From: a virus
Taxonomy: Duplodnaviria > Heunggongvirae > Uroviricota > Caudoviricetes
Direction: 5' to 3' (one strand)
DNA length: 5,153 nt
IMG/VR virus record: IMGVR_UViG_2671181026_000008
Shown: piece after piece, positions 1 through 5,153 of the stretch
Position numbering within the stretch: position 1 is the stretch's first letter
How the letters are laid out: every line of letters begins with the position of its first letter
Translations under genes and position numbers: made by a program
Notes under the pieces: model-generated
Databases searched by the model: none
What the model saw: the letters and a program-made list of their open reading frames with translations, nothing else
Told to the model about the DNA's origin: nothing

Positions 1-49
1 TTAAAAAAAGAACAAATGGTAGTGTCCGCTATTGCCAGTACACCTCAGG
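1..49 (+). mobile_element. Right-terminal 49 bp of an IS3-family insertion sequence (window begins inside the element)
   Basis: Positions 1-49 are identical to 2700-2748, i.e. the last codon of the transposase ORF, its stop and the downstream terminal segment ending ...CACCTCAGG. Identity stops abruptly at 49/50 versus 2748/2749, as expected for an IS boundary. Confidence 0.6.
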
Positions 50-189
50 GTATAAGGGGTTATGGCCACCGGACTACCAAACGGCTGCCAGCCCTCTTTC
101 AGTTTATGTGTCAGCTTTTCCGCAAGATCTGACGGCGGCGCCGCCCTGACAACATCATAGTGTTTAAATGCCATGGTTCTTTCCACCAT
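1..189 (-). CDS. Small prophage protein, possibly DUF1737-like (family from memory, unverified); C-terminal ~16 residues and stop codon are encoded by the IS terminus
   Basis: 62-aa ORF from the track. The second in-frame ATG (172-174) has a GGTGGA/GGAAAG Shine-Dalgarno about 8 nt upstream, so the real start is probably there (MAFKHYDVV...). The last residues RCTGNSGHYHLFFF and the TAA stop lie in the 1-49 segment shared with the IS end. Confidence 0.45.
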   Translation of the reverse strand: MVERTMAFKHYDVVRAAPPSDLAEKLTHKLKEGWQPFGSPVAITPYTLRCTGNSGHYHLFFF

Positions 190-434: not shown

Positions 435-770
435 ATGAAGTGGATTGTGATTGATACAGTTATCCAGCCATCATGCGGAATATCTTTTTCAGTCATATGG
501 AGTAAAATAAAATTAATAATCTGGTATCAATCGGATGCTTTCTTACCTCCTGAAAGTATATTTACACTGACTCACACAGGCATCATGCTCAATAACAAAG
601 TGCTACCTGTAACCATTTACAACGTAGTACCATTCAATAAAACATTCTGGAATTCAATCAAAAATAGCCAGGAATGCCCTACAAATACAGATAACGTATT
701 GAATGAATGCTTTAATAACCGTTGCACTCTGCAAATATGTCCTTATGGACTAAAACAACAAAGTCCATAA
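435..770 (+). CDS. Hypothetical 111-aa protein encoded in an AT-rich segment; Cys-rich C-terminal part
   Basis: ORF from the track. AAGGAAA Shine-Dalgarno about 6 nt upstream of the ATG. No competing ORF on either strand across 190-800. AT-rich codon usage unlike the flanks. No recognisable family. Confidence 0.35.
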
Positions 771-1025: not shown

Positions 1026-1217
1026 ATTTCTCCCGCTAACTGATACCCGGCTAACAGTCTGGCGTTTTCTTTTTCAGCAACGGGAAAGCAACAACCACCA
1101 CACCCGCCACCAGCACACCGTCAGCCAGCACTGACATTATCCGGCTGCTGCAATGCCATTCACAAAAACAGTAAGCAATCACTTTTTACCGTAACAGGTG
1201 ATAATCCAGATATGTAT

Positions 1218-1571
1218 CTACCCCAGATGAGTAATCCGAAGTTCATCCATACCACAGGTCCTGGCTATTCTGTTGTACTCCTGAACAAGAGCAAATAATT
1301 CTGAATTAGCAACCATGAACTCATCGCAAACCCTCTGTATAGCATCACTATTCAGAATAATAACGTCTCTTCCCGAAAGACGATCAGGAGTACAGAACAA
1401 AACTGTCAAACGGCTGAAGGCCTTTGCTCGTGCTGCATTGACTATATCAATACGCTGCCTAAGGATGAAACACCCCGACGCCTCATCAATATTCACTCTA
1501 CCCACACCATATGAATGATAAATATTTAATGCTGAAAAAACCATTAGACCGTATAACAAACACTCAATCAA
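1218..1571 (-). CDS. Hypothetical protein (117 aa from a TTG start; 108 aa from the first ATG at 1544), unrecognised family, sitting downstream of the tRNA array on the minus strand
   Basis: ORF from the track with a protein-like composition and hydrophobic N-terminus. It lies in a 655-bp segment (about 1027-1681) present only in copy 1. Weak point: no convincing Shine-Dalgarno before either candidate start. Confidence 0.3.
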   Translation of the reverse strand: MIECLLYGLMVFSALNIYHSYGVGRVNIDEASGCFILRQRIDIVNAARAKAFSRLTVLFCTPDRLSGRDVIILNSDAIQRVCDEFMVANSELFALVQEYNRIARTCGMDELRITHLG

Positions 1572-1681
1572 TACTTAACAGAACTTTTATTTTTGACAAA
1601 CATAAAATATTTTCAACAATATCCTGAGCCAGGTATATTTCAGTATAAGGCTCTGCCGGAAGGAATCTGGAAGAATGAATA

Positions 1682-1758
1682 TGGCGCGCTGTACTGGATT
1701 CGAACCAGTGACCGATTGCTTAGAAGGCAATTGCTCTGTCCGGCTGAGCTAACAACGC
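1682..1758 (-). tRNA. tRNA-Arg (anticodon UCU), 77 nt
   Basis: Reverse complement folds as a canonical cloverleaf: acceptor GCGTTGT/ACAGCGC (one G-U pair), D-stem GCTC/GAGC, anticodon stem ATTGC/GCAAT, loop CTTCTAA, T-arm ACTGG-TTCGAAT-CCAGT, discriminator G, encoded CCA. Confidence 0.85.
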
Positions 1759-2748: not shown

Positions 2749-2946
2749 ATAGCGGTCATGTGATGCCGGTTTCCCGGTAACTCAGCACCGGTATCTGAGT
2801 CAACGTTTTCTCTACTGGGTCATTTCCGATACGCCCTGCCTGCTGACAGGCTTTCATCACATCTGAAAATATAGCACCCTGACTGATACTGTAGTACCTA
2901 AGGTTCCAGAAACTGTGATGTATCCGGCACAGAAAAGCCCCTCCGG

Positions 2947-3158
2947 AGAGGGCTGGAGAGTGGCGCTATGTGCCATTGCATGATGCCGGGTGCCTCCCGG
3001 TGAATTCAGTACCAGCACCTGAATCCGCGATTATCCCATATACCTACTCGCTGATTGCCCCTCCGCACAGGGGGATTCACCATGCCAGTTTCTTTTAACA
3101 AACTCCCCGCAAAACAGACAACTGTCAACCGTCTGAATTGTGAGACATTTAAAAAAAA
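2947..3158. repeat. Dispersed repeat C, copy 2 (near-identical to 807-1025); hairpin at 2947-2963 preceded by AAAA on plus, so a possible weak minus-strand terminator
   Basis: Direct sequence comparison with 807-1025. In this copy the segment directly abuts the tRNA-Arg(UCU) at 3191. Confidence 0.8.
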
Positions 3159-3190
3159 GGCCCGCAAAAGCGAGCCAGGGAAAATAAGTG

Positions 3191-3267
3191 TGGCGCGTTG
3201 TACTGGATTCGAACCAGTGACCGATTGCTTAGAAGGCAATTGCTCTGTCCGGCTGAGCTAACAACGC
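3191..3267 (-). tRNA. tRNA-Arg (anticodon UCU), 77 nt
   Basis: Same cloverleaf as 1682-1758, with one substitution that turns the G-U acceptor pair into A-U. Anticodon loop CTTCTAA. Confidence 0.85.
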
Positions 3268-3280
3268 ATGATGCAGATAA

Positions 3281-3357
3281 TGGACCGCCATCGGGGACTT
3301 GAACCCCGCGCAGCCAGCTTCGAAGGCTGGCGCTCTTTCCTGATGAGCTAATGGCGG
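3281..3357 (-). tRNA. tRNA-Arg (anticodon UCG), 77 nt
   Basis: Reverse complement folds canonically: acceptor CCGCCAT/ATGGCGG, D-stem GCTC/GAGC, anticodon stem CCAGC/GCTGG, loop CTTCGAA, T-arm CGGGG-TTCAAGT-CCCCG, discriminator T, encoded CCA. Confidence 0.8.
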
Positions 3358-3480: not shown

Positions 3481-4539
3481 TCATCCGTTCTGGCTGACTA
3501 AATCCTGTACTTCCCGAACCGTCTGCTCAAAACGTTCAGTCTCCAGCTCAACGCCAATTGCACGACGCCCGAGCGCCAGTGCCGCTTTCACTGTCGAACC
3601 CAACCCCATGAAAAAATCTGCAATCAGGTCACCCGGACGACTGCTAGCGCTGATTATCTGCTGCAGCATTTCTGCCGGTTTTTCGCACGGATGTTTCCCG
3701 GGATAGAACTGCACCGGTTTATGCGTCCACACATCGGTATACGGCACCTGCACCGTCACGCCAAAATACCGCCGCAGATGTTTATATTCACTCAGCAGCT
3801 CCGCATACTGCCGGTTCAGTGAGGTATACGTATCCACCAGCTGGTGGTGGAGCTTTTCCAGTTCACCACGCCGATGCTTCTCTTCTGCCACCCGGGCAAA
3901 CAGCGCCTGTAATTTCAGATAATCGCTTTCATTCGGCAACTGCCACTGACCGGCACTGAACCAGTGCGACACCATGTTTTTCTTTCCTGTGGCATCTGCA
4001 ATCTGTTTTGCCGTTATCCCCAGGGCAGCTCGCGCATCACGAAAGTAAGAAATCAGCGGGGCCATCACATGCTGTTTCAGTGCACTGCCCTTCGCCGCAT
4101 ACCCGGCATCTTTCGGACGATACGGCCCCTGATAATGTTCCGCGAACAGAATGCGCTCTGTGGCGGGGAAATACGCCCGCAGGCTTTCCTTGTTGCATCC
4201 GTTCCAGCGTCCGGACGGCTTCGCCCAGATAATATGGTTCAGCACACTGAAGCGTTCACGCATCATGATTTCGATATCAGATGCCAGGCGATGACCACAG
4301 AACAGGTAAAGACTTCCGGCAGGTTTCAGCACCCGCCAGAACTGCGCCAGACACTGGTCCAGCCACTTCAGGTAATCATCGTCGCCCTTCCACTGGTTAT
4401 CCCAGCCCTCAGGCTTCACTTTAAAGTACGGCGGGTCCGTGACTATCAGGTCAACAGAATTTTCGGGTAACGACCGGATAAATTCCAGGCAGTCGGCGTT
4501 GATTAACTCACAACTGGATATTTTTACAGTATTAAGCAT
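3481..4539 (-). CDS. DNA methyltransferase, beta-class amino-MTase (N6-adenine or N4-cytosine), no cognate restriction endonuclease in the window
   Basis: 352-aa ORF. Catalytic motif IV DPPY (LIVTDPPYF) lies near the N-terminus and the AdoMet motif I FxGxG (DFFMGLGST) near the C-terminus, the circularly permuted order that defines beta-class amino-MTases. ATG at 4537-4539 is immediately preceded by an in-frame TGA. Shine-Dalgarno is weak. Confidence 0.9.
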   Translation of the reverse strand: MLNTVKISSCELINADCLEFIRSLPENSVDLIVTDPPYFKVKPEGWDNQWKGDDDYLKWLDQCLAQFWRVLKPAGSLYLFCGHRLASDIEIMMRERFSVLNHIIWAKPSGRWNGCNKESLRAYFPATERILFAEHYQGPYRPKDAGYAAKGSALKQHVMAPLISYFRDARAALGITAKQIADATGKKNMVSHWFSAGQWQLPNESDYLKLQALFARVAEEKHRRGELEKLHHQLVDTYTSLNRQYAELLSEYKHLRRYFGVTVQVPYTDVWTHKPVQFYPGKHPCEKPAEMLQQIISASSRPGDLIADFFMGLGSTVKAALALGRRAIGVELETERFEQTVREVQDLVSQNG

Positions 4540-4675: not shown

Positions 4676-4703
4676 AAATAAAAAAGCCTTCACTGCGGAA
4701 GGC
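4676..4703 (-). terminator. Rho-independent terminator on the minus strand, overlapping the stop codon of the 65-aa ORF
   Basis: Hairpin GCCTTC-ACTGCG-GAAGGC (plus 4686-4703) followed on the minus strand by TTTTTTATTT (plus 4676-4685). Confidence 0.5.
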
Positions 4704-4887
4704 GTCTGTAACAACCGAACTGATAGTCTGCCAGACCCGCCATAACCAGCTGGGTCAGTATTAACTGGCAGCGTTCGCGTGAAAGGTAAGTATTCTGCGC
4801 TATCTCCCCGACTGTCGCCGGTTCGGTAACGCTTAATTCATTAAACACCACTCTGGCGGTTTCTGTCATATCCTGCTGTTTTAGCAT
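4690..4887 (-). CDS. Small (65 aa) putative winged-helix/HTH DNA-binding protein, unassigned family
   Basis: ORF with a good Shine-Dalgarno (AAGGAAAAG, about 6 nt before the ATG at 4885-4887). The segment TVGEIAQNTYLSRERCQLILTQLVMAGL has the hydrophobic/polar pattern of a helix-turn-helix recognition region. Bracketed by intrinsic terminators on both sides. Confidence 0.45.
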   Translation of the reverse strand: MLKQQDMTETARVVFNELSVTEPATVGEIAQNTYLSRERCQLILTQLVMAGLADYQFGCYRRLPQ

Positions 4888-5005
4888 GTCTTTTCCTTTT
4901 CCGGTTAACGTGACACACCAATAACTCTTGTCGAAAAAGCCAGCAAGCTGAAAGACAGGTATTCACCGCCACCAGCGCGTTTACTGTACTGACGCGATTT
5001 CAGTC

Positions 5006-5029
5006 ATAAAAAACCCGCTCGGCGGCGGG
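5006..5029 (-). terminator. Rho-independent terminator (tR'-like), second copy
   Basis: Same hairpin CCCGC...GCGGG (plus 5014-5029) followed on the minus strand by six T (plus A-run 5008-5013). Part of repeat F2 (5008-5153), which matches 1974-2111. Confidence 0.5.
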
Positions 5030-5074
5030 TTGTAGAAACTCTTCTAACGTCAGGCATAAAACGCCCATCGTTAT

Positions 5075-5110
5075 GACGAATTTACCACAGATTCCGGAAA
5101 AATCAACCTT
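5075..5110 (-). promoter_or_regulatory. pR'-like sigma70 promoter, second copy
   Basis: Minus-strand -35 TTGATT (complement of 5101-5106), 16-bp spacer, -10 TAAATT (complement of 5079-5084). This copy has an 8-bp tandem duplication (TTGTTACC/TAGTTACC) just upstream of the -35. Confidence 0.3.
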
Positions 5111-5153
5111 GTTACCTAGTTACCTTTTTTAACTGCCGCTCAGCCCATGCTTC

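Follow-up and report, generated by a model that had tools for sequence, protein, structure and literature searches.

The 655-bp segment at positions 1027-1681 of the viral record IMGVR_UViG_2671181026_000008 (IMG/VR; Caudoviricetes), a stretch of 5,153 nucleotides that is referred to here at its full length as the window, is most probably a widespread allele of the lambdoid moron slot, which holds a decayed X-tciA-tciB cassette with one selected gene, X, and a remnant of tciB (tciB'). This slot lies between Q and the tRNA block on one side and the STnc100 small RNA (sRNA) gene and the lysis genes on the other, which is where Stx phages carry stx, and the cassette shares the minus-strand orientation of the late operon. 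In the window allele, tciA has been deleted to its last few codons and tciB has been reduced to an open reading frame (ORF) for its second transmembrane (TM) helix, TM2, and a KKK tail.

The block tRNA-Ile2(CAT) - tRNA-Arg(UCG) - tRNA-Arg(UCU) - repeat C occurs in two copies in the window, and an earlier note, made from the sequence alone, had described an extra segment between tRNA-Arg(UCU) and repeat C in copy 1, which is indeed there; the gap between these two elements is approximately 10-35 bp in copy 2, while copy 1 has approximately 630-655 additional bases. The earlier note interpreted this segment as a copy-specific insert with an unrecognised 117-amino-acid ORF and a 28-amino-acid membrane peptide, and hence as plausible novel cargo in the position of stx. 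This interpretation holds in part, as cargo in the stx slot and a TM helix were both supported, while novelty, copy-specificity, and a purpose-built toxin or lysis peptide were not. Furthermore, the lack of conservation or disruption of frame in relatives that would speak against a coding function was found for the small ORF and was not found for the large one.

Gene X, the conserved gene of the insert

The large ORF reported previously, at 1218-1571 on the minus strand, is present as a 117-amino-acid frame with a TTG start, but its extent has to be revised. We define X as 1218-1496 on the minus strand (92 amino acids, GTG start), the sole intact gene of the insert, because of four observations: (i) full-length relatives of X (91-110 amino acids) all begin at the position of the window GTG at 1496, with MNID or MSEINF, and have good Shine-Dalgarno (SD) sites of their own at that start (AGGAG, AAGGGA, AAGGA); (ii) allele L018 has in-frame stops just 5' of the X start; (iii) in strain C311, the Prokaryotic Genome Annotation Pipeline (PGAP) annotates a 279-nt coding sequence (CDS) for an X homologue (WP_047088380.1) that is 60% identical; and (iv) among 81 copies of the locus, the 25 codons upstream of the GTG contain four nonsynonymous and one synonymous single nucleotide polymorphisms (SNPs) as well as one frameshift. 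The TTG start of the 117-amino-acid form and the 108-amino-acid ATG start implied by phrog_2873 were both considered and rejected, with the GTG at 1496 being preferred. The 5' leader of X (1497-1571, minus strand), i.e., the N-terminal 25 codons of the 117-amino-acid ORF, is not conserved as protein and is probably not translated.

Polymorphism was assessed in 81 IMG/VR and genome copies (31 haplotypes) plus divergent alleles; this sample was used because the full-length copies in complete genomes are too alike (all at least 98.8% identical), which makes the within-population ratio of nonsynonymous to synonymous substitution rates (dN/dS) uninformative when taken alone. X is a real gene under purifying selection. 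Among the 81 copies, X has six synonymous and five nonsynonymous SNPs (ratio of nonsynonymous to synonymous polymorphism, pN/pS, 0.24), no copy is disrupted (0/81), and there is a 3-fold deficit of SNPs relative to the flanks (Fisher p=0.003); comparison of X with alleles that are 60-63% identical gave dN/dS of 0.22-0.27 at a dS of approximately 1.1.

While the earlier note could name no family for the large ORF, this ORF matches phrog_2873 with E=3.8e-70 over profile positions 1-108 of 108, and phrog_4827 more weakly; there is no Pfam or NCBIfam family for X. When 1.84 billion representatives were searched exhaustively with a profile, only 21 clusters were recovered for X, and a word-indexed profile search added members from the Citrobacter freundii complex, Salmonella, Serratia marcescens, Morganella morganii, and Xenorhabdus, organism names being used as given by the source. 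Overall, X homologues share 21-63% identity and represent six genera (E. coli as well as Citrobacter, Salmonella, Serratia, Morganella, and Xenorhabdus), with those in genera other than that of E. coli being 21-42% identical and of the same length; R23, N64, and N75 are conserved in a 20-sequence alignment. The phrog_2873 proteins, annotated as hypothetical proteins of 92-99 amino acids in enterobacterial prophages (WP_047088380.1; P0136 from the Citrobacter freundii complex), have the same length, start, position, and orientation as X and show no essential difference from it; the window allele simply goes unannotated by PGAP.

X is confidently predicted to fold as a soluble coiled-coil hairpin of helix, beta-hairpin, and helix. 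An AlphaFold2 model built from the 20-sequence alignment (predicted local distance difference test, pLDDT, 88.9; predicted template modelling score, pTM, 0.75) places one helix at residues 3-34, a beta-hairpin at approximately 40-45, and a second helix at 50-81, and X has no TM or other hydrophobic segment (grand average of hydropathicity, GRAVY, 0.13). Prefoldin beta and generic antiparallel coiled-coil hairpins are among the closest known systems listed. Among PDB chains, the X profile matched only GapR/UPF0335, weakly and through helix 1 (E=0.05, not significant), and this match was rejected as coiled-coil noise. No PADLOC defence model matched the X of the window, with marginal HEC-06/07 matches obtained in a few relatives.

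These data also bear on the reading that the 117-amino-acid ORF is a chance ORF and that the conserved element is a non-coding RNA or regulatory DNA. Consistent with this reading, PGAP does not call the ORF in the window allele, and the ORF has a non-ATG start and a weak ribosome-binding site; weak sites had been conceded in the earlier note and are borne out by calculated anti-SD duplexes, the best of which reach -3.0 to -3.8 kcal/mol across every candidate start in the insert. However, the dN/dS values of X at a dS near 1.1, the length and SD sites maintained by homologues in other genera, the confidently modelled fold, and the lack of any Rfam match within 1183-1681 all argue for a protein, and the chance-ORF reading is effectively refuted. 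PGAP does not call X in the window allele even though the tciB stump is annotated (e.g., in L001 and L006), and no second CDS under the insert match was found among approximately 70 genomes listed; the missing call thus looks like a systematic annotation gap in PGAP.

Upstream of X lies an AT-rich non-coding spacer (1572-1681, minus strand; GC 0.34) with a SNP density of approximately 10% in the 81 copies. Judging by its orientation and position, X would be transcribed by read-through of the Q-antiterminated late transcript past the tRNAs. A separate weak promoter could also serve X at approximately 1616-1589, where the spacer contains its one sigma-70-like site (TTGAAA-16-AAAAAT, 9/12), identified by consensus match only.

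X is probably a non-essential protein-binding accessory factor, which would be non-enzymatic, probably oligomeric, and dispensable for phage growth. X may also work independently of TciA and TciB, since it persists where these are lost, and neither of them accompanies it in Serratia prophages or on plasmids. It is rather unlikely, in our assessment, that X is the first member of a family, so far uncharacterised, of small prophage coiled-coil proteins that act on the host; possible roles of this kind include an anti-activator of Psr/PatE AraC-like regulators, a partner of TciA/TciB in exclusion or stress resistance, and an anti-defence factor that heads the late transcript.

The first of these possible roles can be weighed further, as X could be an anti-activator or partner of prophage AraC-like regulators of the Psr/PatE/YdeO type, by analogy with the AraC negative regulator (ANR) proteins Aar and Rnr. 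X is directly preceded by a co-oriented gene for a YdeO/GadX-like regulator of 241-242 amino acids in three distinct alleles (L004/L019, L016/L017, and L018), and this pair occurs in approximately 80 complete genomes; the prophage regulators PatE, PsrA, and PsrB belong to the same class (PMC10877973). X is small, helical, and probably oligomeric, as would be expected under this reading, and an orphan X homologue lies beside a fimbrial operon on E. coli plasmids. On the other hand, X adjoins no AraC gene in the window allele, Citrobacter, or Serratia, and the adjacency elsewhere may merely reflect that both genes are cargo of one slot. ANR proteins are characterized by a size of <10 kDa, three helices, and the invariant residues A10, E14, A22, W26, A29, W43, and R47 (PMC4983702); X, with 92 amino acids, two long helices, and a beta-hairpin, lacks this signature, and the window allele has no Trp, a judgement that was made from the published signature rather than by direct sequence alignment. 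An ANR-like role of X is thus highly unlikely. As side observations, some prophages associated with Shiga toxin-producing E. coli have a Psr/PatE-class regulator gene instead of the tRNAs in the interval from the methylase gene to X, and L018 has a PemK-family toxin gene after Q.

The tciB' remnant

The small ORF of the insert is what remains of a DUF3927/TciB-like gene. The 28-amino-acid ORF at 1051-1137 on the minus strand, whose translation MSVLADGVLVAGVVVVAFPLLKKKTPDC had been given correctly in the earlier note, represents the C-terminal 28 residues of a 43-amino-acid, GTG-started ORF at 1051-1182 on the minus strand, which we designate tciB' and which PGAP annotates as "DUF3927 family protein" (WP_000562553.1). 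The 28-amino-acid sequence is identical to database protein P0048, found on 529 contigs, and its V16I variant, P0052, is found on at least 1000 contigs; MSVLADGVLVAGVVVVAFPLLK is the sequence named, beside X peptides, as a target for mass spectrometry. The hydrophobic helix and the KKK anchor that follows it are as previously described, with a Kyte-Doolittle maximum of 2.7 over 15 residues. The ORF matches PF13064 with 95.6 bits (cut-off 25; E=1.7e-27) as well as phrog_1470, which PHROGs annotates as TciB-like, over residues 12-40 (E=7.8e-13).

Full-length DUF3927/TciB-like proteins (e.g., MTVKMRLAVVALLLFLVVMVDFSSRIMSVLADGVLVAGVVVVAFPLLKKKASGD) have 50-54 amino acids and two hydrophobic helices joined by a conserved VDF(S/T)xR(I/L)MS loop. 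tciB' lacks this architecture and keeps only ...SSRIMS, TM2, and the KKK tail of the ancestral 54-amino-acid protein. Alignment of the DNA with three intact tciB genes showed that the start has changed from GTG to GTT and that 20 nt of the 5' half are missing in deletions of 11, 4, and 5 nt; because of these changes, the first TM helix (TM1) and the conserved VDF loop have been lost and replaced by an out-of-frame AYCFCEWHC, after which the frame rejoins at SSRIMSV...

The closest known system to tciB' is the TciA/TciB pair (TerB-like, PF05099, and DUF3927, PF13064 and phrog_1470, respectively) of phage P1 and the lambdoid phage JLK-2012; no NCBIfam families exist for TciA or TciB, and the name "Tci" comes from the annotation of P1 by analogy with TerB. 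The tciB of JLK-2012 and the region that follows it show 93% identity to the small ORF (its 3' 114 nt) and the DNA downstream, and this tciB occupies the same slot, after the phage tRNAs and before DUF1737 and the lysis genes. By contrast with P1 and JLK-2012, the window has no tciA beyond its last codons, and tciB' has no start, TM1, or VDF loop; DNA homology to the tciB of JLK-2012 itself begins only at 1150. At 1183-1210 (minus strand), a remnant of the last codons of the TerB-like tciA and of the tciB start region is 85.7% identical to the tciA/tciB junction of JLK-2012, with approximately 18 nt of the tciA 3' end remaining at 1193-1210. tciB is normally coupled translationally to the upstream tciA through a 4-nt overlap, an arrangement that is absent here; intact tciA/tciB pairs are found in JLK-2012, L007, and L016. 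The alignment with intact tciB genes and the junction remnant thus identify tciA as almost wholly deleted and the small ORF as the stump of a decayed tciB.

The earlier note had likened the 28-amino-acid peptide to small membrane toxins or lysis-accessory peptides, and a related reading is that the 28- or 43-amino-acid single-TM peptide is functional, having retained or acquired a role when the gene was truncated, e.g., as a toxin that depolarises the membrane, a modulator of the holin, or an exclusion factor. The helix is strongly hydrophobic and carries a KKK anchor, the 28-amino-acid ORF is open in 81/81 copies and co-oriented with the late genes, and PGAP annotates it. Yet the ORF derives from the 3' half of a two-TM gene in which the start and TM1 have been destroyed, the ATG lacks an SD site and corresponds to an internal Met in the ancestral protein, and the SNP density of the ORF equals that of non-coding DNA (9 SNPs in 87 nt against 16 in 153 nt of upstream non-coding DNA; p=1.0), which is 3-fold above that of X (10 in 279 nt; p=0.02). 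Five of these SNPs are nonsynonymous and four synonymous, with the helix-breaking changes L4P and G7C segregating, so that no purifying selection on the 28-amino-acid ORF was detected among these copies, although the numbers are small. In the 43-amino-acid form, the GTG is lost in 9/81 copies and a stop is gained in 3/81, and the divergent alleles L004 and L019 have an in-frame TAG within the homologous stretch.

Searches for family and regulatory partners agree with these data. The Pfam match of the small ORF is to DUF3927 alone, with no toxin family and no holin, and Rfam identified no Sok-like or other antitoxin RNA in 1027-1681 at E<=1; the holin, YdfR, and lysozyme genes of related prophages lie more than 1.5 kb further on, past STnc100, iraM, and DUF1737. 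While a one-TM stump of TciB might retain membrane activity, a functional peptide is improbable, and tciB' is most likely a pseudogene remnant without selected function that does nothing. A promoter-like site at 1165-1136 was considered as the driver of the 28-amino-acid ORF and rejected, as its -10 hexamer overlaps the ATG. As a side observation on the family, the DUF3927 variants P0022, P0061, P0115, P0073, and P0111 carry in-frame repeat expansions of 15 nt (GVLVA) or 9 nt (VVM) inside the TM helices, which suggests slippage-prone repeats in the gene.

Distribution of the insert and separability of its modules

The insert is neither copy-specific in the wider sense nor novel. The 655-bp segment was found in 1715/5426 complete E. 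coli genomes, and in full length in 1183 of these 5426 (22%) with 98.8-99.8% identity; it is also carried by an isolated phage, Escherichia phage mEp460_ev081. ST131 and ETEC strains are among the carriers. Its sequences are already catalogued (PF13064, phrog_1470, and phrog_2873), and its small peptides are already annotated as DUF3927. The single-copy order methylase - tRNAs - insert - repeat C - iraM is found in 417 genomes, and the typical context is Q - (methylase) - tRNA-Ile - tRNA-Arg - DUF3927 - iraM - DUF1737 - holin - YdfR - lysozyme.

Accessory cargo in the position of stx, as proposed previously, is supported by comparison with Stx2 phages. In these phages, the match to copy 2 is confined to the tRNA block and is lost beyond it, so that the slot corresponds to that of stx; in stx-negative phages, e.g., Nil3 and Lahn2, the match extends over all of copy 2. 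Like the stx operon, the insert directly follows ileZ-argN-argO, precedes the lysis region, and points in the direction of late transcription. Unlike stx, it is unrelated, by sequence and by family, to Shiga toxin or any AB5 toxin, and none of its ORFs has a Pfam, NCBIfam, or PHROG match to the Shiga-toxin A or B subunit families.

Related loci show the cassette in its intact form; a contig-level scan yielded only two loci. A Citrobacter prophage has the order X - TerB-like TciA - DUF3927 TciB - two holins - endolysin, and the intact X-TerB-DUF3927 cassette occupies the same slot in E. coli (L016, L020, and L022) and Citrobacter (L007, L103, and L104); in E. coli L016, L017, L020, and L022, the order is (methylase) - [AraC-like] - X - TciA - TciB - holin. 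X and TciA/TciB are modules that can be separated, even if they often occupy the slot together. Between Citrobacter L007 and E. coli L016, TciA shows 95% identity, compared with only approximately 40% for the adjoining X genes; Serratia prophages (Q - approximately 700 bp - X - two small genes - lysozyme) have X and no Tci genes, and the reverse is true of JLK-2012 and P1. The orientation of X is always that of Q and the lysis genes in the window, in strains 64 and 300709, and in E. coli, Citrobacter, and Serratia prophage contexts; the one exception to this lambdoid late-region location is an orphan X near a K88-like fimbrial operon on an E. coli plasmid. With regard to TciA/TciB, tciA, tciB, and tciC of P1 were scored as non-essential by CRISPR interference (PMC10695390), and no functional literature on TciB or DUF3927 was found beyond this non-essentiality in P1.

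Setting of the slot and significance

The window is a mosaic of late-region DNA from E. coli lambdoid prophages, with late transcription on the minus strand. The two copies match at 94% over repeat C (821-1039 vs 2950-3168) and at 91% over the tRNA-Arg(UCU) block (1669-1789 vs 3178-3298). The upstream boundary of the slot is the argO-type tRNA-Arg(UCU) of copy 1 (1682-1758, minus strand; identified by ARAGORN, with an Rfam tRNA score of 68 bits), and the downstream boundary is the copy 1 STnc100 sRNA gene, the core of repeat C, at 796-985 on the minus strand (Rfam RF02076, full length, 132.4 bits, E=5.6e-30; gathering score 47). In copy 2, a tRNA scan places tRNA-Arg(tct) at 3191-3267 and Rfam places STnc100 at 2925-3114 (RF02076, full length, 124 bits), both on the minus strand. 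The copy 2 counterpart of the slot (3157-3190, minus strand) has no cargo; an intrinsic terminator directly 3' of tRNA-Arg(UCU) (GGCTCGC-TTTT-GCGGGCC and T8, stem at 3176-3159) forms the spacer. Both STnc100 copies end in hairpin terminators (826-805 and 2954-2936), and STnc100 has been linked to prophage PasD sRNAs in a 2026 preprint (10.64898/2026.05.13.724894).

Copy 1 is followed by a gene for an IraM-type anti-adapter (435-770, plus strand; NF007393, 162 bits; phrog_4407), which has the opposite orientation within the prophage late region and lies in very AT-rich DNA (GC 0.28-0.35), and by a DUF1737 gene (1-189, minus strand) truncated by an insertion sequence (IS) end. Ahead of copy 2 lies a gene for an N6/N4 DNA methylase (3481-4539, minus strand). 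The tRNA-Arg(UCG) (argN) of copy 1, at 1759-1858 on the minus strand, is degenerate; ARAGORN makes no call, the two ends of the sequence align with copy 2 (3281-3357) while the middle is replaced, and related genomes likewise annotate only two tRNAs at this site. Q-proximal segments are also duplicated (1965-2111 and 4999-5153), each with a minus-strand intrinsic terminator, probably the tR' of the late leader (AACCCGCCGCCGAGCGGGTT and a T run, at 1997-1978). This segment is followed directly by the tRNAs in copy 1, and in copy 2 first by a 65-amino-acid winged-helix-like ORF (4690-4887) and the methylase gene.

Of two IS3-family fragments (1-48 and 2112-2747), the larger separates the two late-region copies; it holds a 5'-truncated transposase (rve integrase core at 2224-2703) that ends at approximately 2747, and the window opens with this same IS end (positions 1-52 equal 2700-2751). 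The duplicated, IS-bounded tandem arrangement was found in 0/5426 complete E. coli genomes, where the best coverage, by a single-copy version, was 83%; the window may therefore stem from an IS-mediated rearrangement, from another species such as Shigella, or from an assembly join.

The main value of this analysis is a correction, in that apparently novel cargo of the toxin slot is a common, decayed accessory cassette; the insert itself is an ordinary finding that would not surprise a phage genomicist. The analysis also indicates that PGAP labels the wreck of a gene (43 or 28 amino acids) as "DUF3927 family protein" in >1000 genomes and omits the conserved X. Finally, the states in which the slot is found, i.e., terminator only, X-tciB', X-tciA-tciB, a Psr-like regulator with X, and stx, show that the post-tRNA cargo site is modular, and, as cleanly defined natural alleles, they can be used to ask what roles X and the TerB-like TciA/TciB pair play.
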